A stretch of 64,000 nucleotides of DNA from an uncultured virus (IMG/VR IMGVR_UViG_3300026549_002477) (taxonomy: Duplodnaviria; Heunggongvirae; Uroviricota; Caudoviricetes). The translations under genes were made by a program, and so were the position numbers. Shown here piece after piece: positions 7,572 to 53,071 of the stretch. Location: IMG/VR virus record IMGVR_UViG_3300026549_002477; one strand, 5' to 3'. The notes beneath the pieces are model-generated. The model saw only the letters and a list, made by a program, of their open reading frames with translations, ran no database searches and was not told the origin of the DNA. Numbering within the stretch: the stretch's first letter is position 1; each line of letters begins with the position of its first letter.

Positions 7572-8243
7572 TTGGGGGTGAAAATAATTGTGGTACCAAA
7601 TAATTCTAAAATAACAAAAGGACCGGATGGAAAGGTTTATAATAGCATATCTGAAATGTGTCGGGCTTATGGGATTTCTACTTCTTTATACAGATATAGA
7701 TTGAAGCGAGGTTTATCTCAAGAAGAGGCTTTGAAAAGTGATATTGATAAAAATTATTACAGGAGTAAGAAGTCAATTAGGCTTGAAGAAATTTGTAAAC
7801 AGAGAGGAATAACTCCAGATACTTATCACAAGAGAATTGAAGCTGGGTATTCAGTTGACCAAGCACTTATGCCAACTGAACATAATCATAAGCATAAGCA
7901 GAAGCAGGTGTCAAGCAAAGCTAAACCATGTGTAGATTTTATGGGAAGAAAGTTCAATAGTAAAAAAGACATGTGTATAATGTATGGCATTGATACAGCT
8001 ACATTTGATAATAGAATTTCACATGGTTGGAGTTTAAAAGATGCTTTAACAACAAATGTTGGAGAAAAAAGAAAAGAAGTTGACTTCACGAATACTGCTA
8101 TATTAGCTCCAAATGGTGAGAGATATAAATCAGTTGAAGACTTATGCAAAGCATATGGGCTTGATGCAGTCAAGTTTAAGTACTTTATAAACGAAGGTTG
8201 GAATTTAGAAGCATCAATACATATGTCAAGGATTAAAAAATAA
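7572..8243 (+). CDS. Tandem-repeat protein with 4 HTH-like repeats of the same family as 4412..5638 (start may be GTG 7590)
   Basis: DGKVYNSISEMCRAYGISTSLYRYRLKRGLSQEEAL plus three further copies, the second lacking the N-terminal hairpin. Confidence 0.8.
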   Translation: MGVKIIVVPNNSKITKGPDGKVYNSISEMCRAYGISTSLYRYRLKRGLSQEEALKSDIDKNYYRSKKSIRLEEICKQRGITPDTYHKRIEAGYSVDQALMPTEHNHKHKQKQVSSKAKPCVDFMGRKFNSKKDMCIMYGIDTATFDNRISHGWSLKDALTTNVGEKRKEVDFTNTAILAPNGERYKSVEDLCKAYGLDAVKFKYFINEGWNLEASIHMSRIKK

Positions 8244-23731: not shown

Positions 23732-23828
23732 TAGAATGCCATATTCAAAGAATATAACTGGACAAAGATTTGGAAAGGAACTCTAATAGAATGCCATATT
23801 CAAAGAACATAACTGGACAAAGATTTGG
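23720..23828 (+). repeat. Tandem duplication of 54 bp (period 55, one mismatch) spanning the tadB stop and the start of endonuclease gene 2
   Basis: AAGGAACTCTAATAGAATGCCATATTCAAAGAA(T/C)ATAACTGGACAAAGATTTGG at 23720 and 23775. Confidence 0.95.
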
Positions 23829-25587
23829 GCACTGGACAGTATTGAATGATCCAGGAGGTCAAAAAGCATTATGCAGATGTGATTGTGGGAATGAAAGATG
23901 GGTTTGGAAGTCTCATTTACGCCGTGGGGATTCAACTTCTTGTGGGTGTGATAAGTACAAAAAGATGCATCCAGTAGTTGATGATTTAACAGGACAGAGA
24001 TTTGGTAGGCTAGTAGTTTTAGAAGAACTTGGCGGCGGCAAAATTAAATGTAAATGTGATTGTGGGACAGTAAGGGTATTTGATAAAGTATCTGTTAAAG
24101 GTGGTATAACAAGATCTTGTGGATGTTTGAAGCAAGAAAAAATAAGAGAAGTAAAGAATGATTTAACTGGACAAAGATTTAATGAATGGACAGTCATAGA
24201 AGAATTAGGTGGAAACAAAGTTCTAGCTAGATGTTCTTGTGGAAAAGTAGCTGAACTCTGGAAGTCTCATTTAATTAAAGGCGATACTAAGTCTTGTGGA
24301 CATGAAAGAAACTTAGTAGGAAAACAATTCGGATCTTGGACAGTATTAGAGGAACTCGGTGGTGGACTGGTAAAGTGCAAATGTGAGTGTGGAAACATAA
24401 GGAATGTTTATAAGGAAACTTTACTTGATGGATCATCAAAATCTTGTGGTTGTAAACAAATTGAAAATAGACAAGATACTCTGATGAAAATATATGGTGA
24501 TCCAAGTTCAAGAAGAACAAACAATCCAAGAAAAGATTACCAAATTAAAGCTACAAAATCAGCTGAAGAATTTAAGAAATACATAACAAGTTATGATCAT
24601 AAGCCAACATTAAATGAATTATCTAAAGATTTGGATATTACAGTTGCATTTGTTGGAAGATTAATACATAAAAATCAGCTTGAAGAATTTGTAGATATAT
24701 TTCCAGATAAATCAGTTGGCGAAAAAGAGCTATTTGAATTTTTGAGTAGCATATATAGTGGGAGGATAGTTCAAAATACACGGCAGGTTATACCACCATA
24801 TGAATTGGATGCATATTTACCAGAAAAACACATAGCATTTGAATTTAATGGAAATTATTGGCACTCTGAAGCTATACATGATACTTTTTATCATCAAGAA
24901 AAAACTTTAGCGGCTATTAAGAATAATATTCATTTAATACATATATTTGAGTATGAGTGGGAAGATCAAGAAACTAAAGATAAATTAAAAAATTACATTA
25001 AAGATATAATAGGTAACAATAATACTGTGTTATATGCTAGAAATTGTAGTATTAAAGAATTAGATAGCAATACAGCATCTGATTTTTGTAATAAGTATCA
25101 TCTTCAAGGTTATGCTAATGCTTCTATTAATATAGGATTATATTATGCAAATGAATTAGTTGGGATCATGACTTTTGGTACTCCTAGATTTGGAAGTGAG
25201 TATCAATATGAATTGATAAGGTTATGCTGGAAATCTGGATATAGCATAGTTGGTGGAGCAGAAAAACTATTCAAATATTTTATTAGTAAATACAGTCCAG
25301 ATAATATAGTTAGCTACTGTGATGTAAGCAAGTTTACAGGTAGGGTATATACAAAACTAGGGTTTAGGTTAGCTGATAATAAACTGACACATCCAAATTA
25401 TGTGTGGATAAGAGGAAAAGTAGCATTGAGTAGATATCAGACTCAAAAGAGTAAGTTAATCAAGTATAAATTGGATGCATTTGGCGATACAGAAGATGAC
25501 ATTATGCATAACATTGGGTTTTATAAAGTCTATAATTGTGGAAATTTAAAATTTGTTTACAACAAACAAGAAGGTAATAAACTATGA
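23791..25587 (+). CDS. Second Hef-like protein: 4 Cys-rich repeats, HTH-like segment, Vsr/DUF559-like nuclease and Mom-like GNAT domain
   Basis: Paralog of 19298..21082; ELDAYLPEKHIAFEFNGNYWH; HLQG, ELIRLC and SYCD; stop overlaps the next ATG (ATGA). Confidence 0.72.
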   Translation: MPYSKNITGQRFGHWTVLNDPGGQKALCRCDCGNERWVWKSHLRRGDSTSCGCDKYKKMHPVVDDLTGQRFGRLVVLEELGGGKIKCKCDCGTVRVFDKVSVKGGITRSCGCLKQEKIREVKNDLTGQRFNEWTVIEELGGNKVLARCSCGKVAELWKSHLIKGDTKSCGHERNLVGKQFGSWTVLEELGGGLVKCKCECGNIRNVYKETLLDGSSKSCGCKQIENRQDTLMKIYGDPSSRRTNNPRKDYQIKATKSAEEFKKYITSYDHKPTLNELSKDLDITVAFVGRLIHKNQLEEFVDIFPDKSVGEKELFEFLSSIYSGRIVQNTRQVIPPYELDAYLPEKHIAFEFNGNYWHSEAIHDTFYHQEKTLAAIKNNIHLIHIFEYEWEDQETKDKLKNYIKDIIGNNNTVLYARNCSIKELDSNTASDFCNKYHLQGYANASINIGLYYANELVGIMTFGTPRFGSEYQYELIRLCWKSGYSIVGGAEKLFKYFISKYSPDNIVSYCDVSKFTGRVYTKLGFRLADNKLTHPNYVWIRGKVALSRYQTQKSKLIKYKLDAFGDTEDDIMHNIGFYKVYNCGNLKFVYNKQEGNKL

Positions 25588-31465: not shown

Positions 31466-34400
31466 ATGCTTAACAACGATAATGGAAAAATTAAAATTGC
31501 TGTTAAGATAGGTAATACAGCTATTATAAGGTTTAGCAACTGTATTACCTATCGAGCATTGACAATAGAAGATTTAAATAACATAGTAAAATCAAATGGA
31601 TGCCATATCGTTGTTTTTGAAGATATTGCAGAAGATGAACAAGATGATGCTAGGACATTCATTACTGAATTTTCCAAAGATCCAGATAATTATATGATAT
31701 TCCTTGATACTGGGGATAACATTTATACATCTGGTATGGCTGACGAATTTGAAGAAGCAGTATATACTACAGATACTGACATATATAATCAGATTGAGAA
31801 GCTTTATAATGTCTGTGTTAGTCCTTATATGAAAGATAGACATAAGTTCTCATCTGATGCAAATCCTGATACCATTGGTGAATTGATGGGTTTAGGAAAT
31901 GATACAGATGCATCTAACAATGAAACAGATGCATCTAACAATGATACAGATGCATCTAACAATGAATTTTCCAATACAGATGATATTGCAGTATCTGACA
32001 GTCATGATGGGGATTTAGGGTTTACTGTTCCAACAGGGTATAACAATTCTGAGAATGATAAGTTAATTGAACAACTAAAGGCACAAATTGATGAGCTTAA
32101 GAGTGGAAAAGCTGAAGCAGAGGATAGAGTTAATAAGCTAGCTAATGAAAAGGCTGAAGCAGAGGATAGAGTTAATCAATTAGTAAATGAGAAAGCTGAA
32201 GTTGAAAATAAAGTCAGTCAGTTAACAAGTGACCTTGATGCTGAAAGACAGAGACAGGCTGATATAGAGAAACAGCATAGGGAAGAAGAGGAACTTAGAC
32301 TTACAGCTGAGTCACTCGGAATTGCAGTACCCAATAAGCAGAATCATGAAGTTATTGACCAAACAGAATCAAGTAGCAGTGGTTTAGATAGTGATGAAGC
32401 TCTTGAAGAAATTACAAAGCTTCGTGATGAATTATCAAATACAAAGCATGATTATTCTGAAGCAGTTAAGAATCTTGAGTCAGCTACTGATTTAATAACT
32501 AAACTTCAGGATGAGGCAGATGCAATTAGGGCTGAACATCAAGCTATTTTAAATCATTATAATGAACTCGTAAGTTTGGATCAAGACGTTATGGAGGATC
32601 CAATCACTTTAGAGCAATATAATGGTATACTCAAAGATAGTGAGAATACCAAGAAATTACTTGATGATGCTAATGGCAAGATTGAAAAGCTTACTAAAGA
32701 TTTAGCTGATACAAAGCAATCAAGTTCTGAAACTATTAGTGATATTCAAAGCAAACTTGATAAAGCTAATGAAGAACTTAACGAACTTCATGAGCAAATA
32801 GATTCTGGAGAAATTCATAGAGAAGTTGTAGATGAATATGAGAATAAGCTTGCTGACATAAATTCAAGAAATGATGAACTTACTAGACAAGTAGATAACT
32901 TAACAAGTAAAGCTAACGAACTGTCAGAACAGCTTGACAAACTTAAGTCAGAGAAGCAGTACAGAATAGTATTAACATCTTACCTTGAAGATTTGTTTGG
33001 GAATATTAAGAATTATAATGAGCAGAATGAGATAGAGAAATCTGGACTTCTTAGACAAATTACTGATCTTAAGGATAAGTCTGAAGATGACCTGCAGGAA
33101 ACTAAGAGACAGTATGAAGATCAGATTAAACAGATCAAAGATAAAGCTAATAATGATTTAAGGCAGATTAAACTTGAAGATGAAGAAAAGAGTAGGAAAG
33201 AAAAGCAAGAAGCTATTGATAACGGTCAGAGAGCTGTAGATTCTATAAATGAAGAACTTAATAAAACTAGAGAAGACCTTGAAAATGAGAAGAAACAGAA
33301 TGCTAGTTTAAGTGATAGATTAACATTATCAGATAACTTTTCTAACTCTTTACAGAAGCAGTTGAATGAAGCTAGAGATCAGATTGCTAAACTTTCAAGC
33401 GGAAATCTTGAGAGCAGAACACTGCTCGAGAAAAATAATAACCTTGAAAACACTTTGCATCATATTAAATATGAACTTGACACAAGTAAACAGAGTGAAT
33501 TAGCTTTAACAAATGAGAATAATTCATTGCAAGCTACTAATGAGCAGCTAAAAGAAAGTGTTAAGAACTTAAAGAGTAATATTAATGCACTTAAAGCACA
33601 GTTAAATAGCCTGCAGCTTAGCAGACAAAACATGCAGAGTGTATCAAACACAGGGTTTGCAAATGGGTTTGATTCAGCACCAGTAAACCAGGAAGTTAAA
33701 ATTAGTTACAATGGTGGTGCAAAGATAATTCCAGTGTTTGGTTCCGGATCATATGGTGTAACTACAATGGCATTAAGTATTGCAACTAAACTTAGTGCTG
33801 GTAGTAAAGTACTTGTTATAGATATGGATTTGGCATATCCAAAGATTGATATGTATTTGAAACAGAATCCAGCTTGTAATAATATATCTGATAACTATGG
33901 TACTGGAATTAAGAAAACATCATTGAGTTTGTGCTACATGAATGGTATAAGGTTCTTAGAAAGTAATTATATGAACCTTATACATGTAATTACTTACGGT
34001 AGATCAAGATTCGGTTACATGAGTGGTGTATATTATAATCTTGATGATGCAACTTTGTTGGGGTTTGATTATACTAGGTTCTTTGATTTTCTTAGCCAGA
34101 GTTATGATTATATTATTGTTGACTTGGGAAAGTTTGGCGGTAACTTAGTAAATGATAAGATCATAACAGCAATAATTAAGATACCAGGTGTCCGTTCTGT
34201 AGCTGTTACAAACTCTCAGTATATGACAATTAGAAATTTTGTTATCAATTTAAAACAGTTAGAGATAAACACACAGAATTTGATTGTCGTAAGTAATTTT
34301 TATGATAAACAGAAGGTATCAGATAGAAGCAAAAAGAAAATTAGTACTGTTTTAAATGGAATAAATAATACAACTATTAGACTTGAACCTGGCATTGCTA

Positions 34401-34498
34401 TTGGTTGTGATGAAGATGATTTTAACAAAGTGAACTATAATAATGATAATTTAAACAAAGTAAATGTTGAGATTATCCTTGGGTTCGTAGCTCGGTGA
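31466..34498 (+). CDS. 1010-aa protein: N-terminal alpha/beta domain, ~500-aa coiled coil and C-terminal degenerate MinD/ParA-like ATPase
   Basis: Heptad-rich aa ~195-725; IIPVFGSGSYGVTT, KVLVIDMD and YDYIIVDLG. Confidence 0.72.
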   Translation: MLNNDNGKIKIAVKIGNTAIIRFSNCITYRALTIEDLNNIVKSNGCHIVVFEDIAEDEQDDARTFITEFSKDPDNYMIFLDTGDNIYTSGMADEFEEAVYTTDTDIYNQIEKLYNVCVSPYMKDRHKFSSDANPDTIGELMGLGNDTDASNNETDASNNDTDASNNEFSNTDDIAVSDSHDGDLGFTVPTGYNNSENDKLIEQLKAQIDELKSGKAEAEDRVNKLANEKAEAEDRVNQLVNEKAEVENKVSQLTSDLDAERQRQADIEKQHREEEELRLTAESLGIAVPNKQNHEVIDQTESSSSGLDSDEALEEITKLRDELSNTKHDYSEAVKNLESATDLITKLQDEADAIRAEHQAILNHYNELVSLDQDVMEDPITLEQYNGILKDSENTKKLLDDANGKIEKLTKDLADTKQSSSETISDIQSKLDKANEELNELHEQIDSGEIHREVVDEYENKLADINSRNDELTRQVDNLTSKANELSEQLDKLKSEKQYRIVLTSYLEDLFGNIKNYNEQNEIEKSGLLRQITDLKDKSEDDLQETKRQYEDQIKQIKDKANNDLRQIKLEDEEKSRKEKQEAIDNGQRAVDSINEELNKTREDLENEKKQNASLSDRLTLSDNFSNSLQKQLNEARDQIAKLSSGNLESRTLLEKNNNLENTLHHIKYELDTSKQSELALTNENNSLQATNEQLKESVKNLKSNINALKAQLNSLQLSRQNMQSVSNTGFANGFDSAPVNQEVKISYNGGAKIIPVFGSGSYGVTTMALSIATKLSAGSKVLVIDMDLAYPKIDMYLKQNPACNNISDNYGTGIKKTSLSLCYMNGIRFLESNYMNLIHVITYGRSRFGYMSGVYYNLDDATLLGFDYTRFFDFLSQSYDYIIVDLGKFGGNLVNDKIITAIIKIPGVRSVAVTNSQYMTIRNFVINLKQLEINTQNLIVVSNFYDKQKVSDRSKKKISTVLNGINNTTIRLEPGIAIGCDEDDFNKVNYNNDNLNKVNVEIILGFVAR
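31898..31966 (+). repeat. 3 x 21-bp in-frame tandem repeat (N[D/E]TDASN)
   Basis: AATGA(T/A)ACAGATGCATCTAAC x3. Confidence 0.9.
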
Positions 34499-38079: not shown

Positions 38080-38997
38080 ATGAACGTACATGTTATTTTT
38101 GATTTTATGCACATTTATTATAAGTATTTCTTTCAGATGCAGTCCGGAAGGATGCCAAAGTTAACTTCTGATAGTGACATTGTAAAAGAAGTTGGTGGAA
38201 GAACCGAAATGATTTATTATCCACTTAAAGATATTGAGAGAATACGTAAGATGTGCGAGGATAAGAACCTTGAAGTTACATATTCAATATGCTTGGATAG
38301 TAAGTCAAAACGTAAGGATGAGGATGATGCATATAAATCTGGAAGACAGCATGTATTTACAGATGTAGATGATAAAAATATTGAGATAATCTCAAAGATT
38401 TTTGAACAAGCAGGTGGAAATGTTTATAAGGTACCTGGATATGAGGCTGATGATCTTATAGCTGATTTGTGTAATAATTATAGGAGTAACTTTGATGTTA
38501 CATTGATTGTTACAAACGATAAAGATGTACTGAATAACATTTGTGATAATGTACAGGCCATGAGATTTAAGCAAAAAGCAGGATATGAGGTTGTTACAGT
38601 ACAGAATTTTTCATCATATTTATCCAGTGAGTTTAAAGCCGATATAAGATATGATAACTTAGGACTTTTCCTATCAACTGTAGGAGATTCATCAGATAAG
38701 ATTAAAGGAATAAATAAGTTTGGGCCAAAGGCATTTGATAAGATGATGGTTTGGCTTGATGAGAATACAAACATTGATTGGTCAAAAGCTAATAATTATG
38801 ATTATTTAGAAAACATAATAAAAAATGATTGTTCCAAGTATTTAAATGAAGAACAACTTAGTCAAGCAATAGAAAGTTTTAATCTTGTTAGAAATTACAA
38901 GTTGCCTTTCTCACTAGCTTTTCCGAGTAACAAATGTGACAAGAATAAAAGATCAGAAGCATATATGCAACTCGGTATGAAGTCATTGATCAACTAA
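38080..38997 (+). CDS. Stand-alone 5'-3' exonuclease/flap endonuclease (Pol I N-terminal domain family)
   Basis: IFD, YKSGR, GYEADDLIA, TNDKD and the H3TH motif GDSSDKIKGINKFGPK. Confidence 0.9.
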   Translation: MNVHVIFDFMHIYYKYFFQMQSGRMPKLTSDSDIVKEVGGRTEMIYYPLKDIERIRKMCEDKNLEVTYSICLDSKSKRKDEDDAYKSGRQHVFTDVDDKNIEIISKIFEQAGGNVYKVPGYEADDLIADLCNNYRSNFDVTLIVTNDKDVLNNICDNVQAMRFKQKAGYEVVTVQNFSSYLSSEFKADIRYDNLGLFLSTVGDSSDKIKGINKFGPKAFDKMMVWLDENTNIDWSKANNYDYLENIIKNDCSKYLNEEQLSQAIESFNLVRNYKLPFSLAFPSNKCDKNKRSEAYMQLGMKSLIN

Positions 38998-41778: not shown

Positions 41779-43041
41779 ATGGCTAATAAACCAAATTTTA
41801 ACCACAATGAGAACAGTGGAAATAGAAACATTAAAATTGGCAGAGATAACATTGATTTTAACAATAATACATTTGATGATGATCAAACATTAGATTCTTC
41901 TGATGACTTTGACTTTGATGATGATATAACTGATGATACCACTGATTTTCCTAATGTACCAATAGAAAATAAGACGATCAGGCAGAATAATGTTAATAAG
42001 CAAGCTCAGAGATCAATGGATCAGAGTAAGCAAAACAATAGACCAATGAATCAGAATCAACAAAATAGTTCTAGAAGTGTACAGAATGCTGAGGCAAAAA
42101 CTGAGAAGAAGAGTCCATTGTTCAAGAAGGCTAATGATAACAGTAAGCCAGTAAAGGAAAAACCAAAAAAGCAAAAAATTTCTAGCCATAAGAAGACTAG
42201 TAATAATTTTGTTAGACCAGGACATGAAAATGATACAACTACTAAAAAGAATCTTAATGTTAAAAAGATCATTGTTCCAGTTGTTGCAGCAGCTGTTGTT
42301 GTGTGTGTTGGGCTAGCAGGATTTAAGTATTACAAGGCAAATATGGTTTATGATCCTCTTGTAGAAGCTGCTCAGCAAAAGGATAAAATTATCCTTGCTT
42401 CCGAATCAGATAATTCTAGTAGTGATTCCTCTAAGGCAGTTGAAACTGATGCTGATAAGTATGCTAATGTTGAAAATACTGTATTAAATGCTGGAAAATC
42501 AGCTGACTTACCTGTTGTGATAACAACTCAACTTGAAGGTGAGAGTGGATATACTGATCATTCTACTTATATTACAGTTAAGAATAATGGTATCATTGAA
42601 GATGAGAATAAGATAAAAGATATAATTGACAAGTATAATGAAAATGCATCATCAGTGATTAATGCTGATAGCATTAAACAGGATGGATATACAGCTCAGA
42701 TCTATGATATAGAAATTGATATTCCAGATGACTTCCCGACTTCTGATACAAAACATAATAAAACATATATGAAATTTGATGAACCAACTTTTGTTATTAG
42801 AGGTACTGATAAAGAAAACCTTAAAGCTGTTATAAGTGAAGATAATGAGTATGCTATTCCTGTTGCTACAAATGTAACTACAGATGATTTTTCAAATACA
42901 GTAGTTGGCGGAGCTTATCATACATATTGGCTTGTACTGATGCCATCAGATGTTAAGACAAGCGCTTATGAATATGACTTTACTATTGGATCTAATGAAA
43001 TGAATGGGGATCACACAATTATGATGTCTGGTCAGGAGTAA
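41779..43041 (+). CDS. Single-pass membrane protein with a disordered N-terminus
   Basis: Acidic/basic low-complexity N-terminus; TM IIVPVVAAAVVVCVGLAGF; beta-rich C-terminal domain. Confidence 0.7.
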   Translation: MANKPNFNHNENSGNRNIKIGRDNIDFNNNTFDDDQTLDSSDDFDFDDDITDDTTDFPNVPIENKTIRQNNVNKQAQRSMDQSKQNNRPMNQNQQNSSRSVQNAEAKTEKKSPLFKKANDNSKPVKEKPKKQKISSHKKTSNNFVRPGHENDTTTKKNLNVKKIIVPVVAAAVVVCVGLAGFKYYKANMVYDPLVEAAQQKDKIILASESDNSSSDSSKAVETDADKYANVENTVLNAGKSADLPVVITTQLEGESGYTDHSTYITVKNNGIIEDENKIKDIIDKYNENASSVINADSIKQDGYTAQIYDIEIDIPDDFPTSDTKHNKTYMKFDEPTFVIRGTDKENLKAVISEDNEYAIPVATNVTTDDFSNTVVGGAYHTYWLVLMPSDVKTSAYEYDFTIGSNEMNGDHTIMMSGQE

Positions 43042-43046
43042 TAATT

Positions 43047-43979
43047 TTGGAATTACATGTTAAAAAGGCTAAAAAGAAATTAGCTAAAATTGAACATAAA
43101 AAACCAGTAAAGACTACTAAAATTAAAAAGCCTGTAATAAGTACTAGATATGCAGATGAAACAGAATTGCATACTATAGGTATACAGGTTGGGTTTAACA
43201 GAATTACTTATGGATGTATCAAGAGCTGTGAAGCTGAGAGAATCAGTCTTCCAGAGGGAACTATAAATCTTACTGGAAGCTGGGATGAGATAATTTTGAC
43301 AATGTTATCTGCTTTATTAAGCTATGATAATGCTCAAGAGATAATGGTCGATAATGGTTTATGCAGTGACTACTTTATTGTAGACAGCAAATATGGTAAG
43401 TTAACAAGCAACATTAGATATAAGACATATAAGATTCCTGGAACAAACTTATTTCTTGAGATGTCAAACGATTATAAGACTGTATATAAAGCTATAAGAG
43501 ATTTGATTAAGTGCTTAGGATATGAAGAAAAGGACATTATGATTGATATTTATAATCCTAAGACAAGAGAAGTAAGTAAAACTATAGTATTACTTGATCA
43601 AAACGAAAAGTTAGTAAGCATTGATGAATTAAAGGATTACTTAAAAAAGAAGTGGTATATATCTGGCGTAGTTGTAAATAGTCAATTTTATGATTGTTCA
43701 GAATTAAAAGTAGCCCTTGTAATTGTGTTAAAAACATTTGTGTTTAAATATGCAGATGTAAGTAAATATAATACTAAAAAGATAGGCGTGTGTGACATAG
43801 GAGATTCTGAATTACCAACTGCTAGATTGAATGAAAACCAAGAGGTTTATGATGCTGGTGATACAACTGAAGAAATAACTTATATTAAGAAATTAGCAAG
43901 TAAGTATAATGAGGTAGTTAAATTTAAATTAAAAACTATTCAAAAATTTGTTCCTAAACATGAATGGGAAACTGATTAA
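43047..43979 (+). CDS. Hypothetical protein
   Basis: AGGAG RBS then TTG; lysine-rich N-terminus. Confidence 0.65.
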   Translation: MELHVKKAKKKLAKIEHKKPVKTTKIKKPVISTRYADETELHTIGIQVGFNRITYGCIKSCEAERISLPEGTINLTGSWDEIILTMLSALLSYDNAQEIMVDNGLCSDYFIVDSKYGKLTSNIRYKTYKIPGTNLFLEMSNDYKTVYKAIRDLIKCLGYEEKDIMIDIYNPKTREVSKTIVLLDQNEKLVSIDELKDYLKKKWYISGVVVNSQFYDCSELKVALVIVLKTFVFKYADVSKYNTKKIGVCDIGDSELPTARLNENQEVYDAGDTTEEITYIKKLASKYNEVVKFKLKTIQKFVPKHEWETD

Positions 43980-44014: not shown

Positions 44015-45619
44015 ATGTACTACATTTCAAGAGATGCTAAGCCAGATATTCAAGGAATGAAAGCCACTATGGAAGGTTTGATGGCTCGTGGAATTAGGAT
44101 TGCAGATTGTGAGGGTGTTCTTCAGTATTATACTAATAATCGAGAAGCCTTAAAAGATAAGATTAAAAATAGTTATGGAATAAATAATCCAAATAGTTCT
44201 GCTCAAATTACAGCTAAACTTGAAGAACTTAGTGATTCGGAGCAAAACTATAAAGATAGAAATCCAATTATTGAAAATTGTTTTGATGAAAGAACTCATA
44301 AGTGGACTAGCAAAGCAGAGGCTCTTGAAAAATTAGCTGATCTTGGATATACATTTGCTCAGGATATTTTGAGTTATCGTAAGTATAAAAAATATGCAGA
44401 CAGTATTGAAGGAATGTTAAAGGCAAGAGATTCTGATGGGATTGTGCATCCAACAGTAACACTTGCTAAAACTAATAGAATACAGTATTCAAATCCTGGT
44501 ATCCTTACAATTCCAAAGGATTTGCTTTGGAAAATTATTGCACCATATAAACAGGGAGATGTTCTCTTTAGTGCTGATATAAAGAACCAAGAGCCAAGTA
44601 TTTTAATTAATTTTTGTGGTGCTGATGAACTAAAGCCAGCCTTGAGTAGCCCAGATGGTTTGTACGAAACGATGTTTAAGAGCTGTTTTAAACCAAGAGC
44701 AAAGGCCAATGTGTTTGTTGGGATTGGTCTTGAAAACAGGGCTTATGATCCAAAAGCATTGTTAGAGACTGGCAGGATACAGGATATAAATAAATTATAT
44801 GCAGAAAAACCTGGAACAAACAGCATTTATTATAATAATAAACAAGTAACAGAGATTCAGCCAGTTTGTTTGGGTGGAACTAAAGGCGAGAGACCAAATC
44901 TTCCAGATACGGTTGTAATTGAAACAAGTGATGGGTATACATATAGGGTTCCAGTAAAATGGCATGAAGAAGATATAGAAAGTGGTTTTAATAAAAATAA
45001 AGATTATACAATCCTTGGGGATTTGGATGATCTTGAAGTAAAAATCAATAAAATAGAAAGAAAAGAGTTTAAGACATCTTGGAACGCTATAAGCTATGGT
45101 TCTTCTATTCAGGGTGTCAAAAGTATTTGTAAAGTAATTGACGGTACTAAGGTATATAAGTATATTACTGGTATTTCACAGTTAAAGACTTATCGTTCAG
45201 CTATTAGTAAGTGGGCTAGGGGGCATAATACAAGAATTAAAACAGTATTTGGCACTCAGCTGGATGCTGGAGCTGAAAATCAGTATGATGTTAAAAGACT
45301 TGAGAGAATTTTACTTGATCTTCCAATTCAAGGTACTGGTGCAGATATTTTGAGTTTATTGATTAAGCACTTTTATGAGTATACAAAGCAAAATGGACTT
45401 GATGATAAACTTGAAGTATATTATACAAGACATGATGAGCTAATTATTGAAGCTAATGGAGAATGGGTTAGATCAGTAGGAATTGATAAAGTAACAAGTA
45501 TTCTTCATGATATGCTTGAGCACCAAATTGCTGATTGGGTTCCGTTCAAAATGGACATTGGGCCAGTTAGTTCGAATGTGAGTGAATTAGATAGTTTTGA
45601 CATTGATGAGGATGATTAA
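44015..45619 (+). CDS. polA: Family A DNA polymerase, polymerase domain only, with a ~120-aa insertion in the fingers
   Basis: INNPNSSAQI, TNRIQYSNP, motif A SADIKNQEP, motif B RKEFKTSWNAISYG, PIQGTGADI and motif C RHDELI. Confidence 0.88.
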   Translation: MYYISRDAKPDIQGMKATMEGLMARGIRIADCEGVLQYYTNNREALKDKIKNSYGINNPNSSAQITAKLEELSDSEQNYKDRNPIIENCFDERTHKWTSKAEALEKLADLGYTFAQDILSYRKYKKYADSIEGMLKARDSDGIVHPTVTLAKTNRIQYSNPGILTIPKDLLWKIIAPYKQGDVLFSADIKNQEPSILINFCGADELKPALSSPDGLYETMFKSCFKPRAKANVFVGIGLENRAYDPKALLETGRIQDINKLYAEKPGTNSIYYNNKQVTEIQPVCLGGTKGERPNLPDTVVIETSDGYTYRVPVKWHEEDIESGFNKNKDYTILGDLDDLEVKINKIERKEFKTSWNAISYGSSIQGVKSICKVIDGTKVYKYITGISQLKTYRSAISKWARGHNTRIKTVFGTQLDAGAENQYDVKRLERILLDLPIQGTGADILSLLIKHFYEYTKQNGLDDKLEVYYTRHDELIIEANGEWVRSVGIDKVTSILHDMLEHQIADWVPFKMDIGPVSSNVSELDSFDIDEDD

Positions 45620-45646
45620 TGAGAATTGTTTAAGAGGTGAACATTA

Positions 45647-47176
45647 ATGAGTAATAGAAAGCTTAAAATACGAGCTATTGCATTGGGACTTATAGCTAGC
45701 ATGGGTCTTACTGGATGCAGTTCTCTTAAAAGTGAAATGTCTACTTGGATGAATAACAATAAAGAAATTCATCTATCTGTTGAAGATGCAGGTGAGCAAC
45801 CAGAAAGACTTCAGACTACTTGGGTTGAGTTGGATCAGTTAGATACTTTTCCAAAAATCAGATCTGCTTATGATGAAGCATGTGGAAACATCGTGTTCTC
45901 TCTTGGTTCAAAGAATGGGGTTCTGTTTGTAGACTCAGATACTGGGGATACTAATGGTGCTTGGAAAGGTAATAATACATTATACAGTGTATTTAAGAAT
46001 AAGAATTTTGAAAACCTTTGGGGGGATGCATCATTTAGACAGAGTATAGCTGATGCTACTAAGGAGACATTTCCAGATGTAGCTGGTTTTTCAGATGGAT
46101 ACTCTCTGATAATGACTGCTACAAATGCTTATTTTAATATATTTGCAACAAATTCAGATGGAACATCTGGAATGAGTAACATTGCAACAAGAGCTGAAGC
46201 AATGACAGGTATTTATAAATCTGATCATGAAGTTACAGCTCTTACCGAAGATGATAATTTTACATTAGCTGTAGGTAATAATTCAAATAATTTGTATGCA
46301 CAAAATGAAGTGAATAACAGCTATCTTAAGACAGATGATAGCAGTTTAAACTATGATACATACAATAGTCCAATTACAAGAGCAGAAGTATTGTACTTGT
46401 TGATGAATGAGTATTATCCAAGCGAAATGAAAGACCTTGAAAATCAGAAAAATTCTCTGGATGCAGGTTTCACTGATGTAACCAATGGTGGTGATATGAC
46501 ATCTAAACTTGGGTTCACTGATAAATTTGCTCATGAAGAGTATGTGTTAGAATACTGTTTAAGAAAGCCAGATAAACTTGATTCTGAACTATATAAAGCT
46601 CTATATGTTGCTAAAGAACATGGAATAATAAATTCAAAAGAATCTAAATGGTATAAAAATGTTACTGTTTTTGAATGCCTTGACTATATGATTAATACTA
46701 TAGAGGCTAAAATAAAAGAAAATGGATATACAGTAGCCGCAGACATGGGTTCAAATGCTGGCACTGATTATTATGCAGAAGCTATAAAGGAAGCTCAAGA
46801 AGCTGCTGAAGCAAATAGAGAGTCTATCAATATTGAAGGTGCTAAGATCACAAAGATTAGAGACCTTACAAAGATTGATGATCTTCTTAAAGAATGTGCT
46901 GATGAAATTGATATGACTGATGAAGAAATTGCTGAAGCTAAAGCAAACGTTAAGGGATTTACATTTACACCAGTTGATAAGTATATGTACGTAAGTGCTA
47001 GTGCATTGAATGTAAGAACTGGCCCCAATACTTCATTTAGAATTATTAAGACAGTACCACATGGAGATAAAGCGCATATTGTTGGTATATGCAATGAAAC
47101 AAGATGGTTTAGAGTACTTATTGATGGTAAGATAGCTTATCAGTGTAACATTTATTTCTCTGATAAAGCTGAGTAA
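45647..47176 (+). CDS. Lipoprotein with SLH-like motifs and a C-terminal SH3b domain
   Basis: Lipobox LTGC; ATRAEA and ITRAEV; ALNVRTGP.T.F.II...G....W. Confidence 0.72.
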   Translation: MSNRKLKIRAIALGLIASMGLTGCSSLKSEMSTWMNNNKEIHLSVEDAGEQPERLQTTWVELDQLDTFPKIRSAYDEACGNIVFSLGSKNGVLFVDSDTGDTNGAWKGNNTLYSVFKNKNFENLWGDASFRQSIADATKETFPDVAGFSDGYSLIMTATNAYFNIFATNSDGTSGMSNIATRAEAMTGIYKSDHEVTALTEDDNFTLAVGNNSNNLYAQNEVNNSYLKTDDSSLNYDTYNSPITRAEVLYLLMNEYYPSEMKDLENQKNSLDAGFTDVTNGGDMTSKLGFTDKFAHEEYVLEYCLRKPDKLDSELYKALYVAKEHGIINSKESKWYKNVTVFECLDYMINTIEAKIKENGYTVAADMGSNAGTDYYAEAIKEAQEAAEANRESINIEGAKITKIRDLTKIDDLLKECADEIDMTDEEIAEAKANVKGFTFTPVDKYMYVSASALNVRTGPNTSFRIIKTVPHGDKAHIVGICNETRWFRVLIDGKIAYQCNIYFSDKAE

Positions 47177-47421: not shown

Positions 47422-47535
47422 GTGTGTTGGCATTTAAACCAGCATAAAAGTTAGGGTATGTCTGAATAATTAACTTTTGAGTTGATTTTTACTATGATTA
47501 GCGCATAGTAGTTTTATATGCTGGAGGTCAAAAAT

Positions 47536-48891
47536 ATGGGAGCTGATAATAAACCAAGCAAACCTACATTTGAAAAGGAGTACTTAGATAAGCATGAAAA
47601 ACATGTTGTAAATTCTAATGATCAATTAAATAGGGCAAGAACTAGCACAAATACTGCAAACAAGCCTAATATTAGTAACCAGGGTTCTTCTAGAAACCTT
47701 AAAACTAGTGTGCAGTCAAAACCGCCAGTTACACCCGATAATAAAGATGAAGACAATGGAGGTAAGAAACACATGGAAACATGGATGAAGGTTCTGATTG
47801 CAAGTTTATGTGCTGCTGTTGGAATTGGTATCGGAACATATGCTATCTATAGGCATAATCAAGTAATAGATACTACCAGTCAGGTTGAAATTGAGCAACA
47901 GGTAGATCCAAATGAAGCATCAACAGCAGCTACTACTGAAGCACCAGACATTGGAGACTCAGTAGAGATATCTTCAGAGGCTGAAACAGTCATAGAAGAT
48001 GAAGTCAATCTGACAGAACAGTATAAAAAAGAAGCAGAAGGCTACTGGCCAGATTATAAAGATCAAGTTACTTGTGATGAAGATACATTTGTAGATTATT
48101 ATGTCAATGGAAGAATAGATGGATTAGGCCAAGGTGAATCTTTAGCAAATACACTTCATGAATATGCTAAGAAAAAGTCAACAGAAGATTTATCACAAGC
48201 ACAGTCTTCATCCACTTCTTCCACCGATCAAACGGAAGAGGTTGCATCAGAAGCTTCCACAGAGACAGTTGAGCCTCCGTTATATGAAGTAGAGGATATG
48301 GAGCCGACTGTTATGTATACGACGAATGCAGTGAATGCAAGGAAAGGCCCAGATACTTCCTATGATAAAGTTGTAACCTATAAGAAGAGCACATCCCTCA
48401 CAGCAGTTGGTAGAGTTAGTTCGTTTAAAGGGCAGCCAACGGATTGGTATGAGATAAAGAGGAAAGATGGGACGATGGTGTTTGTAGTAGCCTCCTATTT
48501 AACGACTACGAAGCCGGTTGCATCTTCCGCTTCCACCACAACCACAACCACCTCCACCACCAAATCATCCACCAACACCACTACCACTCAGTCCCAGACC
48601 TCCGCTTCCTCTTCTTCACAGTCAGCATCTGCATCCGCATCCACATCCGCATCAACCACACAGCCCGCTCAGCAGCAGCCAGCACAGCAGCCGGCACAGC
48701 AGCAGCCCGCACAGCAGCAGCCCGCACAGCAACAGCCAGCACCGAGTACAGAGCAACCAGCAGTTACCCCTCCGTCACAGAACATCCCTGGTGCAGTAAC
48801 CAGTGACAATGATGGAATTACAGAGGAACAGCCTGAGCCATATACAGATGGCGAGTTATCAGATGCAGATTTGAATGTTCAGTGGTATTAA
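47536..48891 (+). CDS. Membrane-anchored surface protein with an SH3b domain and S/T- and Q/P-rich tail
   Basis: TM VLIASLCAAVGIGIGTYAIY; VNARKGPDTSY...WYEI...VFV SH3b; QQPAQ repeats. Confidence 0.75.
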   Translation: MGADNKPSKPTFEKEYLDKHEKHVVNSNDQLNRARTSTNTANKPNISNQGSSRNLKTSVQSKPPVTPDNKDEDNGGKKHMETWMKVLIASLCAAVGIGIGTYAIYRHNQVIDTTSQVEIEQQVDPNEASTAATTEAPDIGDSVEISSEAETVIEDEVNLTEQYKKEAEGYWPDYKDQVTCDEDTFVDYYVNGRIDGLGQGESLANTLHEYAKKKSTEDLSQAQSSSTSSTDQTEEVASEASTETVEPPLYEVEDMEPTVMYTTNAVNARKGPDTSYDKVVTYKKSTSLTAVGRVSSFKGQPTDWYEIKRKDGTMVFVVASYLTTTKPVASSASTTTTTTSTTKSSTNTTTTQSQTSASSSSQSASASASTSASTTQPAQQQPAQQPAQQQPAQQQPAQQQPAPSTEQPAVTPPSQNIPGAVTSDNDGITEEQPEPYTDGELSDADLNVQWY

Positions 48892-48900
48892 TTCGTTTAG

Positions 48901-48945
48901 ATGCCTCTTCCTTTTAAACATAACTTAATTGGAAGAGGCATTATT
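48901..48945 (+). terminator. Stem-loop after the surface protein gene
   Basis: ATGCCTCTTCC...GGAAGAGGCAT. Confidence 0.6.
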
Positions 48946-49054
48946 AAAAATTAACAGTTAGACTTATAAAACATCATTTAAATTTATAAATCAACAAAAG
49001 TTTTTGGAAGGAAGAAAAGAGATGAAATACACAGTGAGAAAGGAGGAAGGCATT

Positions 49055-52000
49055 TTGAATTCCAAGGTAGGGAAATTTTTACAGCTATTAATCATAGTAT
49101 TCCTATCTGTGTTAGCCATGTTAGCTTTCAAGCCGTTGCAATCTACCATATATGCCAGTGATTATAATGGTAATCAATCAGAAACAACAGATGGCAGTGG
49201 CAGCAGCTGGGGTAATACGCAATGGGATTATAGTCAGGTAGGTTATCGAGTTTACCTGTATAATATCAACACAGGTTCAGTTATCAGTGACGTAGTTGAT
49301 ATAGTTGGCACCTCCCCAAGATATAATTATGGATTTACCAGTACACGAAAAGGTGGGGGTTCAGTTAGTAGAAGATCAGTCGGTTATCCTGATTATGGTC
49401 ATGGAACAATGCCATCCCCGTTCAATGGTTCCACTTTGCATGGTGCTGCTTTGAAGGCATGGTTTACTGGTGATAACATGCACAATGGCAATAAGTTTAT
49501 TTGGAAGGTTTTTCATAAGAGGCCTACCGATTTACCAGAAGGCACCTATTGTATTCTAGAGGATTTAATGTGGAGAACGGTACCAAATACAACAGCCGGA
49601 AGTGGTAATTCAACCAGCGATGTTTTCTATGGTACTTATAATAACCTTTGTAATGATTATTATCCACATAGTAGTTATATCAATCCCGAGATGAGTGGTG
49701 GATATAAGTGTTATAAGAATGATAATTTTTGGAGATCGTGGCATACATGGTTACCGAATGCATTAGTCCTAGATAATGCAGAGGATGCTGCGAAGTTAGG
49801 ATTAACGGTTCCGGCAGATGCAAAAGTACGAATGTTTAGTACCTTAGGCAATCAAGGTTTAGGAATGCATGCTTTTCATGTAGCTGGAAGTGATTCAATA
49901 ACTCATACCTGGGATAAGAAAAATTGTCCGAAGACACCTGGTAAAGCACCGGATGATACCTCATTATATCCAGCACATGATTCTGATGACCCGAATTATA
50001 ATTGTCATATAGTAAAGTTATATTATGATTTAAAGGATGATGGAAAAACGCCAGATGAGACGAAACCAAGGGTAAAAGATAAGAATTGTTTTTATCGAGA
50101 CCTCACGTGTACGAAGATAGAAGTAGAGGATGAGGAAGAAGTAGGGTATAGAGTAATGGACTGGTCGACATCGTATTCCAGTGGGAATGAGTGGGAGAAT
50201 GTAACGCATTGGTCAGAAGTACCCACACCGATACAGAAAGCCACCAAGAAAACTCTTTTAAGTACAGTTACATTAAAGCCTAATAATGTAACAACTTCTA
50301 AATCAGATAATACTTTGTATGTGTTGCTTGTAAGAACTCCTAATGATACACATACATGGGATCAGCCAAATCATCCAGATGATCCGGGTCCTGCACCTGA
50401 TGATAGTGATAAGTATCCGCCTCATGATTCAGATGACAAGTATTATAATAATAACATTGTTAAGGATTATTGGATTTATGATGAAAATGGTAATCCAAAG
50501 ACACATGTTGGTACATTCCATAGAGAAAAGACAGCTAAGAATATACAGGTTGAAGATGAGAAAGAGTGGAAGGTCAAAGATTGGAAGACTTCAAATCAGT
50601 ATGATCCTAACATAAGTGAGTGGAATGTGCCTGGTACAATCTATCAGAAAGCTGGTAATACAACAGCATATGTTAAGATGGATCCAGAAAAAGGTGAGAC
50701 TACACTGTACGTATTGCTTATTAAATCTGAAGTAGAAGATAAAGAGCCACCAACAGATTGGGATTATCAAGTTTATGAGAGTCAGGTTAGTAGAGGTATT
50801 ACACTAAGAGTTAATGATAAAGGAAAGAATATTCTGTTTGGACATCATTTCAATTGGGATTATCCAGCAATAAATGATGATGGACATGGATTTTCTTGGC
50901 ATTATTGGAAGGTAGTTAATGTTATACACCATACTGATCATCATAGCGATCCTATATATGATTCACAAGGAAATGTGAGTGGGCATCATAACTATGATAC
51001 TCATTGGGACGAAGATATTTGGGGCTGGTCAAGTGGTGGTGATAAACACTCAAGCACTTTCTGGTGTCCATCATATCAGTTCACTGACTACAGATTCCAG
51101 TTAGGTATCAAGAATAAGACTTATGATGATACTAAAGTTGCTTCATTTGGACAAAAAATGGTACTTAACGGAACTAAAGTAACTGGTGATAATGACCATG
51201 TATTCTTTAGAACACCTAGTGGTTATAGCGATGCAGACCATGATCCTGGGGCACAAACTGGTTCTGGACATACAGCACCTGGTGGAACAATAGATGATTG
51301 GGATACATCAATTAACACTAACGGTTATGATTATTATTGTGTAGTATACAGAGGTGAAGATACACTTACATTTGCAGAGTGGAAAGGTGCTTCTGGAGCA
51401 ATCACTGGTTTAAGCAACTTTAAGGTAGCTAACAAGCCACAGGGTCGTTTAAGTGGTAAGGGTGGCAGTAAGAATGGTAAATATTACATCTCAACTGAAG
51501 ATTACAACTTCAGTGATGCTGGAAGAGATAAGACAACCACAGTGCTGTTTGCTGGTGGAAATCCTAGCACAAGTGAGAAAAATAAAGACCTTAGTCCTAC
51601 CCACATTGATCCACATAGTAAGAGTGGTAGCATTGGATTGAATAATCCGCTTAGTGGAAGTTTTGGAATTAAGTACTTTGTATTCTTTGGTGATGAAAAC
51701 GGAAAGAGTACAACAAGTGAGTCTGGTAAGATTGCTAATGATAAGCCAGATGGTAATTATAAGCATTTGAATGGGATTCATGATCCACTTAACTTGTCTG
51801 TTGACGGATCAAAGCAGATGAGCGGTACAATGACTAAGTTAGGAAGCTTCTCATTCTATCCATATGTACAGATGAGATGGGATTCAGCTTTCGATAGTGG
51901 AAAAGATACTAAGATTTATGTTCTTGGTGAATACAAGAGAACAATGAATGTTAGCGGTGAAGCTGAGGTAATTTGGGGAAGAACTTCTGAGGCTAACTTG

Positions 52001-53071
52001 AATATAACTTCTAAACAGTGGTCAACTTCAAGTCAGACTAAGAAGGACATGAAGAGCATGACAGCTAAAGGTTTGCAGAAAGCTTTACCTGGTGGTGCAG
52101 TATTCATGATGGATACTAAGAATCATGATCAGAAATTATATGCTGTAACTTATCAGCCAATACTTACTGATGCAGGTGAGGAACAAGTTAAAAACACTAG
52201 TAGCGTTCCTAACTTCTTAACTGAAAGTTCTGTTACATCTAGACATACACAGTATGTCAAGAGTGTTGAGAAGATCATTGATGATGTGATGCTTGAGCAG
52301 TTTGCAAACAATGCTGACAGTGATCCGTTTGGTGGAAAAGCTGTTGACAATGGTTCTAATATAAGCTTCCTTAATAACGGAATTGATAAGGCAAGCAGCG
52401 AAAGCAAATACTATTTCAACTCACCTAGTATTAATGATAAGAAGGTTGAAGGTGACCTTGATTATGAAGAGGGAAGTACAACAACTGAAGATCACACATT
52501 CTCAACTAACGTTAAGGGACAGTTGTTAATGGATGGAAAAGTCATCATTGACAAGGGTGGATCAGTTGGAAGTTTGAGTGGCATTGCTAAAGATATTAAT
52601 GACAGAACTCAAATTGTTACACACCTTTGGAATAGTATCCAGAATAATGCTGGACATGATGTTGGCAGTAAAGAGTTAGATGGTGGTAATCCTAGTGGTG
52701 ATGATTCTGCTCTTGGAGTTAATAAAGAGCGTGCTGTTAATGCTCCTGATTGGGCTTCAGATGGTAAGTGGTACAATGAAGCATTTGATGGAATAACCAT
52801 TAGAATTACTTCAACTGAGATAACAGTTGGTTTGAAGGATCCAAGTGTTCGTAGCACAGTACTTGATCCAAAACTTATCCCTCCAACAAATAGCAAAGTT
52901 GGTGCTAAGAACACAGCTTCTTACAATGATTCAGCTATGAGAGTCAGACCTACAAGCGGAAAAGTTGTTGGTAGCTACAATAAGCAGAAAGTTGTTATGG
53001 ATGATATGGAGTGGCTGTTCTGGAGTAAGAGATGGTACATTCCGAACCAGACGGTACAAGATCTGAGATAA
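49055..53071 (+). CDS. Very large secreted beta-rich protein (putative adhesin) with a duplicated domain and a His-rich segment
   Basis: AGGAGG before TTG 49055; signal peptide ending IYA; two THTWD...TLYVLL domains; no C-terminal sorting signal. Confidence 0.7.
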   Translation: MNSKVGKFLQLLIIVFLSVLAMLAFKPLQSTIYASDYNGNQSETTDGSGSSWGNTQWDYSQVGYRVYLYNINTGSVISDVVDIVGTSPRYNYGFTSTRKGGGSVSRRSVGYPDYGHGTMPSPFNGSTLHGAALKAWFTGDNMHNGNKFIWKVFHKRPTDLPEGTYCILEDLMWRTVPNTTAGSGNSTSDVFYGTYNNLCNDYYPHSSYINPEMSGGYKCYKNDNFWRSWHTWLPNALVLDNAEDAAKLGLTVPADAKVRMFSTLGNQGLGMHAFHVAGSDSITHTWDKKNCPKTPGKAPDDTSLYPAHDSDDPNYNCHIVKLYYDLKDDGKTPDETKPRVKDKNCFYRDLTCTKIEVEDEEEVGYRVMDWSTSYSSGNEWENVTHWSEVPTPIQKATKKTLLSTVTLKPNNVTTSKSDNTLYVLLVRTPNDTHTWDQPNHPDDPGPAPDDSDKYPPHDSDDKYYNNNIVKDYWIYDENGNPKTHVGTFHREKTAKNIQVEDEKEWKVKDWKTSNQYDPNISEWNVPGTIYQKAGNTTAYVKMDPEKGETTLYVLLIKSEVEDKEPPTDWDYQVYESQVSRGITLRVNDKGKNILFGHHFNWDYPAINDDGHGFSWHYWKVVNVIHHTDHHSDPIYDSQGNVSGHHNYDTHWDEDIWGWSSGGDKHSSTFWCPSYQFTDYRFQLGIKNKTYDDTKVASFGQKMVLNGTKVTGDNDHVFFRTPSGYSDADHDPGAQTGSGHTAPGGTIDDWDTSINTNGYDYYCVVYRGEDTLTFAEWKGASGAITGLSNFKVANKPQGRLSGKGGSKNGKYYISTEDYNFSDAGRDKTTTVLFAGGNPSTSEKNKDLSPTHIDPHSKSGSIGLNNPLSGSFGIKYFVFFGDENGKSTTSESGKIANDKPDGNYKHLNGIHDPLNLSVDGSKQMSGTMTKLGSFSFYPYVQMRWDSAFDSGKDTKIYVLGEYKRTMNVSGEAEVIWGRTSEANLNITSKQWSTSSQTKKDMKSMTAKGLQKALPGGAVFMMDTKNHDQKLYAVTYQPILTDAGEEQVKNTSSVPNFLTESSVTSRHTQYVKSVEKIIDDVMLEQFANNADSDPFGGKAVDNGSNISFLNNGIDKASSESKYYFNSPSINDKKVEGDLDYEEGSTTTEDHTFSTNVKGQLLMDGKVIIDKGGSVGSLSGIAKDINDRTQIVTHLWNSIQNNAGHDVGSKELDGGNPSGDDSALGVNKERAVNAPDWASDGKWYNEAFDGITIRITSTEITVGLKDPSVRSTVLDPKLIPPTNSKVGAKNTASYNDSAMRVRPTSGKVVGSYNKQKVVMDDMEWLFWSKRWYIPNQTVQDLR

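Follow-up and report, generated by a model that had tools for sequence, protein, structure and literature searches.

A Big_4 Ig-like module inserted between motifs A and B of a family A DNA polymerase encoded by giant elements of gut Lachnospiraceae

Can an Ig-like domain typical of surface proteins lie inside a DNA polymerase, and what would it do there? The question is raised by a gene in a stretch of 64,000 nucleotides from an uncultured virus (Caudoviricetes; IMG/VR record IMGVR_UViG_3300026549_002477), here referred to as the window. The gene, at 44015..45619 on the + strand (stop codon included), encodes a family A DNA polymerase of 534 amino acids (aa) without exonuclease domains, as found from the list of open reading frames (ORFs), Pfam, PHROG, AlphaFold2 and Foldseek. 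An initial annotation, made from the sequence alone, had pointed out extra residues between the catalytic motifs A and B and assigned them to the bacterial Ig-like domain Big_4. Family A polymerases are the best-studied polymerase fold and workhorses of biotechnology. Moreover, the natural inserts known in them (the thioredoxin-binding loop of T7 and the inserts of Pol theta and of the plant organellar enzymes) have each shown how such an enzyme can gain processivity, bypass lesions or recruit partners. None of them has the design seen here, a complete Ig-like domain beside the O-helix, at an unusual insertion site.

We first describe the insert itself. Its bounds were set by alignment to insert-less relatives, and the whole insert covers aa 226–345 (44690..45049, + strand), in place of a loop of 6–11 residues between helix N and helix O, as seen in the spacing survey, the model and the insert-less orthologues at loci L003, L004 and L007. 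The interval proposed initially, 44690..45055, differs from it by no more than two codons, and the peptides quoted at that time are all present in the 534-aa ORF. In the AlphaFold2 model the insert is flanked by helix N (aa 216–224) and by helix O (aa 346–360), which carries motif B; the two helices are named by comparison with the fingers of Pol I. The spacing between the Asp of motif A and the Arg of motif B was measured in 111 aligned rows, namely the window protein, 15 close homologues, 92 cluster representatives and 3 locus-derived proteins. The window polymerase has 161 residues between D188 and R349. The 47 insert-bearing rows, with the window included, have a spacing of 153–189 aa, and 44 of them stay within 153–172 aa, whereas the spacing is merely 43–51 aa in the 57 insert-less rows, among which Pol I-type rows with DYSQIEL are included. 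Six rows are intermediate (76–123 aa), and one fragment row without a spacing was set aside. The presence of extra residues between motifs A and B was thus confirmed.

The same site between helices N and O holds other inserts as well. P0215, P0216 and P0227 share one unrelated insert (spacing 110–120 aa), P0183 and P0196 have a shorter one with the pattern LP..V....W and no Pfam Big_4 match at an expect value (E) of 0.01 or less (spacing 117–123 aa), and the spacing in P0232 is 76 aa. The N–O loop looks like an insertion hot spot in the wider polymerase family.

The insert can be divided into two parts, an adaptor (aa 226–274; 44690..44836, + strand) and a Big_4 Ig-like module (by structure aa 275–341; 44837..45037, + strand). 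The module was recognized by Pfam, VIA-align, phmmer and the ESM Atlas. In Pfam, PF07532 (Big_4) matches aa 290–335 (nucleotides 44882–45019) with E 7e-7 and 29.1 bits against a cut-off of 22.1, and a profile search of aa 226–347 alone, which had been suggested as a check, gave E 2e-7 and 30.8 bits. PF07532 is also matched at E<=0.01 by 40 of the 58 insert-bearing relatives, with a best E of 3.7e-11. An exhaustive search of cluster representatives brought up P0217, an 823-aa protein with a Big_2 domain and nine Big_4 repeats (Pfam Big_4 E 2.3e-147), and by BLASTP the insert aligns to all nine of these repeats (E 6e-8 to 2e-4, at most 46% identity over 39 aa). Furthermore, phmmer matched the insert to the solved beta-galactosidase of Bacillus circulans, 8Q2H, with a whole-sequence E of 1.8e-10, and four repeats of that protein are involved (851–919, 927–995, 1338–1405 and 1427–1478).

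The structural comparison led to the same family. The insert alone was modelled (4 sequences, predicted local distance difference test score, pLDDT, 72.9) and searched with VIA-align against 48,161 PDB representatives. Rank 1 was Bifidobacterium bifidum BbgIII (7nit_A 885–950; Z 5.2, root mean square deviation 2.5 A, 65 residues, 23% identity) and rank 2 was 8q2h_A 927–991 (Z 5.0, 2.4 A, 64 residues, 25% identity), while the third row, a Lig Ig-like domain, reached only Z 3.3. The 8Q2H repeat at 927–991 was therefore recovered both by structure and by sequence. In the ESM Atlas, the structure neighbours of aa 273–345 are Big_4 domains of glycoside hydrolase clusters GH53, GH127, GH43 and GH2, with template modelling (TM) scores of 0.46–0.53; a feature search there with the insert gave no usable match. 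Two results speak against this assignment. The Z-scores of the VIA-align matches are modest, and Foldseek found no PDB match for the insert-only model at E<=0.001, the best being Pif1 at E 0.4, with BbgIII only at rank 22 (E 0.97). The suggested check by AlphaFold and Foldseek gave a confident full-length model, but no significant Foldseek match for the insert by itself. Nevertheless, chance resemblance is excluded, since 40 of the 58 relatives match Big_4 and the repeats of P0217 and 8Q2H match the insert. Over its C-terminal ~67 residues the insert is truly homologous to the Big_4 repeats found in secreted glycosidases.

The assignment to Big_4 holds for aa 275–341 and fails for aa 226–274, which matched no Pfam family. 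According to the AlphaFold2 model, this family-specific adaptor has a strand at 228–235, helices at 246–252 and 258–261 and a strand at 271–273. In the model of the insert alone, its pLDDT drops below 50, and we therefore infer that it probably leans or packs on the fingers. In the full-length model, by comparison, the insert blocks have pLDDT values of 86–97.

Big_4 repeats of secreted GH2 beta-galactosidases (8Q2H of B. circulans and 7NIT, BbgIII, of B. bifidum) share with the module the signature V..I.PV.....G..P.LP.TV.....DG....V.V.W......Y.V.G. In those enzymes they are tandem extracellular repeats of the C-terminal regions, whereas the window module is single, nested in a cytoplasmic enzyme, follows an adaptor, and has two extra residues and a short helix (aa 318–324) after the conserved Trp. 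The usual setting of Big_4, extracellular or on the surface and often in tandem, is not found here, with one copy nested in the polymerase; and no hydrophobic start like that of a signal peptide is visible by eye in the polymerase sequence (MYYISRDAKPD...).

An insertion of this kind might also come from an intein, an intron-encoded ORF, a frameshift fusion or a mis-assembly, and homing endonuclease genes do exist elsewhere in the window (19298–21082 and 23770–25587). However, the gene is a single uninterrupted ORF, the same architecture recurs in at least 47 clusters from many samples, and the insert is modelled with high confidence as part of one fold. Inteins have a Cys or Ser start and a His-Asn end followed by Cys, Ser or Thr, while the insert begins with K226-P227 and ends with I344-N345, then K346, and Pfam found no Hint or endonuclease family in it. 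We rejected the intein, as the initial annotation had done, and give the whole group of artefacts and mobile insertions a negligible chance.

We now turn to the enzyme that carries the module. It matches the DNA_pol_A profile (PF00476) with E 1.2e-23 and 84.1 bits (cut-off 34.3) in two stretches, one on either side of the insert, and so do all 58 relatives match this profile; the PHROG match of the protein is phrog_17 DNA polymerase (E 1.6e-17). With motifs A, B and C in place as well, its earlier naming as a family A polymerase stands. The full-length AlphaFold2 model, built on an alignment of 58 sequences, has a mean pLDDT of 92.9 and a predicted TM score of 0.88. Its best Foldseek match is the large fragment of Bst Pol I, 3ht3_A (E 3.9e-16, TM 0.60), and the 167 PDB matches at E<=0.001 are Pol I-type polymerases throughout among the matches listed. 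The predicted fold comprises thumb, palm and fingers of the Pol I type.

The motifs were located with the help of the family alignments and of HMMER alignments to Pol I enzymes of solved structure. Motif A with the catalytic Asp is DIKNQEP (D188–P194; 44576..44596, + strand), which aligns to DYSQIEL of the Pol I-type rows. Motif B in the O-helix is RKEFKTSWNAISYG (R349–G362; 45059..45100, + strand) and motif C is R472-H473-D474-E475 with HDE at 473–475 (45428..45439, + strand), both placed by alignment to Mycobacterium smegmatis Pol1. Across the 58 relatives D188, K190, N191 and E193 of motif A, R349, K353 and Y361 of motif B and D474 and E475 of motif C are invariant. Because D188, R349, K353, Y361, D474 and E475 are all kept, the polymerase looks catalytically competent as far as its sequence can tell. 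Only about 40 residues precede the start of the Pfam polymerase profile, so that both the 3'-5' and the 5'-3' exonuclease domain are absent; the window has a 5'-3' exonuclease as a gene of its own at 38080–38997. In comparison with the polymerase domain of Pol I (Bst large fragment, KlenTaq, M. smegmatis Pol1), the fold and the catalytic Asp, Arg/Lys/Tyr and HDE are the same, but identity is approximately 16%, the 3'-5' exonuclease (in places vestigial in Pol I) and the 5'-3' nuclease domain are missing, about 115 extra residues stand between helices N and O, and Asn357 takes the place of Phe/Tyr.

Two details of the polymerase may be added. Asn357 (aa 356–357 are nucleotides 45080–45085) aligns in the O-helix with the Phe or Tyr of Pol I-type enzymes, the residue that discriminates dideoxynucleotides (ddNTPs). 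Across the family residue 357 is Asn or Leu, and Trp356 before it is nearly invariant, with or without the insert. The protein ends in an acidic tail, ELDSFDIDEDD, within aa 520–534 (45572–45616), with pLDDT below 50 for aa 528–534; such a tail is common to many relatives, including the insert-less L007, though not L003.

How widespread is this architecture? A word-indexed search returned 303 homologues, and the best 120 of the 303 are 479–548 aa long. Among these best 120, 95 by our count bear precomputed labels of both PF07532 and PF00476; the architecture is already visible to automatic annotation. An exhaustive search gave 606 cluster representatives at E<=1e-3, of which 75 pass E<=1e-30, in forms of ~515–550 aa and ~390–420 aa. 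The same architecture was found in at least 47 clusters from many samples, corresponding to 47 of the 111 aligned rows in the survey of homologues, and the insert is kept in polymerases down to about 30% identity. Insert-bearing polymerases come from IMG/VR records of 268 kb and 250 kb and from Lachnospiraceae metagenome-assembled genomes (loci L005 and L006); insert-less ones come from IMG/VR records of 265 kb (with direct terminal repeats, rated complete) and 116 kb and from a further Lachnospiraceae metagenome-assembled genome (L007). By tblastn, the phage collection contained a single matching record, Micrococcus phage Kurnik, with 27% identity over aa 101–225, and the plasmid collection contained no match to the polymerase. 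Single-protein locus scans of the genome and viral collections yielded no locus, and the loci used here came from alignment-based scans.

The insert-less sister polymerases have 389–424 aa (393 aa in L003 and 409 aa in L007) and share about 40% identity on both sides of the insert. They lie in elements of similar size (IMG/VR records of 250–270 kb) and in a related neighbourhood, with the 5'-3' exonuclease and the 437-aa and 1355-aa gene families. They differ in the spacing of 43–51 aa, in the lack of Big_4 and in that no gene of the 310-aa family described below was found nearby.

With regard to the origin of the insert, a quick tree calculated with the insert columns removed scattered the insert-bearing rows and required 7 changes. 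It put the insert-bearing P0130, P0136 and P0137 among insert-less rows, and the insert-less P0171, P0166 and P0184 among insert-bearing ones. Paraphyly of these rows was rejected, as the approximately unbiased (AU) test favours holding them together: the tree with the 47 rows as one clade has a p-AU of 0.876 and exceeds the free quick tree by 69.85 log-likelihood units. A single origin is hence compatible with the data and not rejected. Since the insert is missing from the Pol I-type outgroups as well as from more distant relatives, one gain in one branch of a short-loop polymerase family is the simplest reading.

Once gained, the insert has been kept under purifying selection. The ratio of nonsynonymous to synonymous substitution rates (dN/dS) was taken from two independent close pairs, L001/L010 and L013/L014, and is 0.10 and 0.05 for the insert against 0.06 and 0.10 for the rest of the protein. 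The insert is the least conserved part of the enzyme, with a mean pairwise identity of 22–26% compared with 39–52% for the core. A Big_4 unit may have been captured once at a permissive surface loop and retained without a function of its own, mainly because its removal would disturb folding. The low conservation agrees with such a passenger, as do the other inserts in the N–O loop of the wider family (P0183, P0196, P0215, P0216, P0227 and P0232), the single origin that was not rejected, and the retention of all catalytic motif residues in insert-less relatives. But the dN/dS of the insert is as low as that of the catalytic core (0.05–0.10), the insert persists down to about 30% identity, and its length is tightly kept, as shown by the narrow spacing in 44 of the 47 rows. 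We consider an idle passenger improbable.

If the module is functional, the role that we favour, tentatively and as no more than a real possibility, is that of a protein-docking platform between helices N and O. It would ride on the mobile part of the fingers as a docking platform and not as a DNA-binding element. The polymerase has no other feature for binding accessory proteins, and the module would bring it a partner from the replisome. The net charge of the insert is acidic (median charge -3 over the 47 proteins, and -7 for the Big_4 part of the window protein), and for this reason partner binding is weakly favoured over DNA binding. The conserved insert residues are mainly of the core type (P227, Y261, I281, P297, V314, W316 and G335), with E248 in addition; the only charged positions of moderate conservation are E248, K265, R277 and K327. 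The module directly precedes the O-helix. The O-helix of Pol I-type enzymes swings during nucleotide selection. Use of the fingers as a docking surface has a precedent, as T7 DNA polymerase binds the helicase tail through a patch on its fingers (PMC7699545, available text). Three points count against docking on the fingers. Some basic positions of the insert are moderately conserved (K265 74%, R277 72% and K327 64% K/R), the insert as a whole is poorly conserved compared with the core, and the predicted placement of the module on a moving part of the fingers is based on the topology of helices N and O and on Pol I structures.

The same basic residues lead to another explanation, in which the module touches DNA, either the template single strand or one of the duplexes (downstream or nascent), and so raises processivity or strand displacement, as insertions in the fingers and thumb do elsewhere in family A. 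Besides K265, R277 and K327, its attachment beside the O-helix, which lines the active site, would suit this role. The enzyme may also have to be processive, because neither a Pol III alpha subunit nor a family B polymerase was found in four related element records. The net acidic charge given above argues the other way, Pfam recognizes no DNA-binding family in the insert, and Big_4 domains are not known to bind nucleic acids. There are precedents for inserts that act on DNA: insertion 3 in the fingers of the plant organellar polymerases works through a lysine (PMC7699545, available text), and in SPO1-like polymerases, beta-strand expansions of the fingers are tied to template stabilisation (PMC10201439, available text). 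All together, direct DNA handling seems rather unlikely to us.

Alternatively, the module may have no external ligand and act within the molecule. By altering how the fingers open and close, or how stable they are, it would change the fidelity of the enzyme or its choice of nucleotides, perhaps in adaptation to an unusual nucleotide pool. It stands at the N-terminal end of the O-helix, Asn357 replaces the Phe/Tyr of Pol I and T7 next to the nearly invariant Trp356, a gene for deoxycytidine monophosphate (dCMP) deaminase is located 2.5 kb upstream, and the disorder of the adaptor when modelled without the fingers suggests packing against them. Yet insert-less relatives have the same O-helix motif, WNA or WLA, which shows that the unusual O-helix does not depend on the insert; an autonomous Ig-like fold of 67 residues would also be a large investment for a purely allosteric role. 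This intramolecular tuning is, in our opinion, quite unlikely.

If the module is a docking platform, which protein would be its partner? We compared the gene neighbourhoods of 89 loci and noticed a 310-aa ORF with a lysine-rich N-terminal tail at 43047..43979 (+ strand), upstream of the polymerase, which became a candidate partner by its co-occurrence with insert-bearing polymerases. After dereplication, 12 of 20 insert-bearing groups have a member of its family within 7 kb of the polymerase, compared with 0 of 18 insert-less groups (Fisher 5e-5). When only loci whose upstream flank is at least 3 kb long are counted, the gene precedes the polymerase in 12 of 16 with the insert and in 0 of 36 without it. 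The lysine-rich N-terminus is opposite in charge to the acidic insert. The protein matched no Pfam family and no PDB relative, only one unnamed PHROG at E 3e-5, and an ESM Atlas feature search gave weak leads only, below 0.9.

Several observations count against this partnership. No 310-aa homologue detectable by BLAST exists at 4 of the 16 insert-bearing loci (L026, L030, L034 and L035, which are divergent). On the tree that kept the insert columns, all insert-bearing loci but one fall in a single clade and the co-occurrence amounts to 1–2 independent contrasts, which leaves a sign test without power; with ancestry so shared, it may be a mere lineage trait. Other neighbour families are equally lineage-specific, including the 420-aa ORF (7 insert-bearing versus 0 insert-less groups), SH3_3 (10 versus 2) and one further family (6 versus 0). 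The 310-aa protein is the leading candidate partner of the module, with a chance that we rate as low. Similarly, it is unlikely, though worth stating, that it is a new accessory subunit docking on the Big_4 module and that the pair forms a two-subunit replicase of the giant Lachnospiraceae elements. Such a replicase would be a fingers-based counterpart of T7 gp5-thioredoxin, derived from a domain otherwise known only in cell-surface glycosidases.

The thioredoxin-binding domain of T7 gp5 is our favoured functional analogy, being likewise an insertion in a subdomain of a family A polymerase that docks an accessory protein. It is a thumb loop that becomes ordered on binding (PMC10201439, available text), whereas the window insert is an autonomous Ig-like fold in the fingers with an unrelated sequence. 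In the window polymerase the thumb is at aa ~100–137 and the insert is between motifs A and B, which is not the thumb tip used in T7. The UDG-PolA (uracil-DNA glycosylase fused to the polymerase) of N4-like phages is another case of a whole foreign domain incorporated into a family A polymerase (PMC10201439, available text). The ordered insertions that Czernecki et al. 2023 list in their reclassification of family A polymerases comprise this UDG fusion, which is N-terminal, and expansions of beta-strands, located at the thumb or where the exonuclease meets the fingers, and no Ig-like or Big_4 term occurs in the main text of that paper or in the available part of its supplement (PMC10201439). 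Insertion 3 of the plant organellar polymerases and the inserts of Pol theta also lie in the polymerase domain, the fingers included, and add functions, but they are described in the available text of PMC7699545 as short lysine-bearing loops acting on DNA for lesion bypass and end joining, are unrelated in sequence and contain no folded domain. Full-text literature searches found no paper describing a Big_4 domain in a polymerase, in line with the initial impression that the architecture was new; the term "Big_4" mostly returns unrelated "Big 4" papers.

The polymerase offers a clear case of a "surface protein" domain recruited into a cytoplasmic replication enzyme. Its N–O loop tolerates a folded cargo of 115 residues with the catalytic motifs intact, which is useful for engineering fusions at that position, and if the module recruits a partner, it would represent a new kind of polymerase accessory interface. 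Moreover, the architecture marks a large uncultured group of gut Lachnospiraceae elements of 250 kb and more, whose replication machinery is almost wholly uncharacterised.

The polymerase belongs to a giant mobile element of gut Lachnospiraceae. The GC content of the window is 29–42% per 2-kb window and ~31% over most of it, and the GC skew is positive in every 2-kb window. Since all listed ORFs of at least 300 aa are on the + strand and the skew is steadily positive, one long co-oriented replication or transcription unit is suggested. The genes in the window include two for helicases (5661–7571 and 8461–9852), one for a clamp-loader subunit (from 62869 to the window end) and the dCMP deaminase gene; further products are a RecJ-like nuclease, partition proteins of the ParA-like and actin-like kinds, a secretion-type ATPase and the two homing-endonuclease-like proteins. 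IMG/VR classes the four related records (G001–G004) as viral, one of them with direct terminal repeats, while three Pfam models, Terminase_6N, TerL_ATPase and Phage_capsid, found no match in any of the four, two of which are rated 100% complete. These elements may be jumbo phages, as in the IMG/VR class, or may be plasmid-like. We rejected the Hodor conjugative megaplasmids (PMC12934698) as relatives, for their GC content is 44–47% compared with ~31% here and the available text mentions a family B polymerase only in their prophage. The insert-bearing records G001 and G002 have one polymerase each. The insert-less 265-kb record G003, which holds L003, has a second family A polymerase match at 44793–45908 in a 1171-aa frame (E 1.7e-67).

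The gene order round the polymerase is related between insert-bearing and insert-less loci. The polymerase is flanked by genes that look envelope-associated, upstream at 41779–43041 and downstream at 45647–47176 and 47518–48891. The upstream one encodes the 420-aa protein, which has a hydrophobic segment and whose N-terminal half is of low complexity, and the downstream ones encode two SH3_3-domain proteins, the first of which has a lipoprotein-like N-terminus. The GC content peaks at 0.416 in 48001–50000, over a low-complexity coding stretch rich in Gln, Pro, Ala, Ser and Thr. Two very large ORFs, 49004–53071 (1355 aa) and 31466–34498 (1010 aa), have no Pfam, PHROG or PDB sequence match, and the 1355-aa ORF adjoins the polymerase in insert-bearing and insert-less elements alike.

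Farther from the polymerase, the two homing-endonuclease-like ORFs (19298–21082 and 23770–25587) are paralogues of ~600 aa that match phrog_3339 with E 2e-99 and 2e-94, and a T2SSE-type ATPase gene (21190–22701) and an ORF at 22736–23731 sit between them. A second pair, 4412–5638 and 7572–8243, shares phrog_1065, phrog_3377 (HNH endonuclease) and PVL ORF-50-like repeats, and flanks a DEAD/ResIII helicase gene at 5661–7571.

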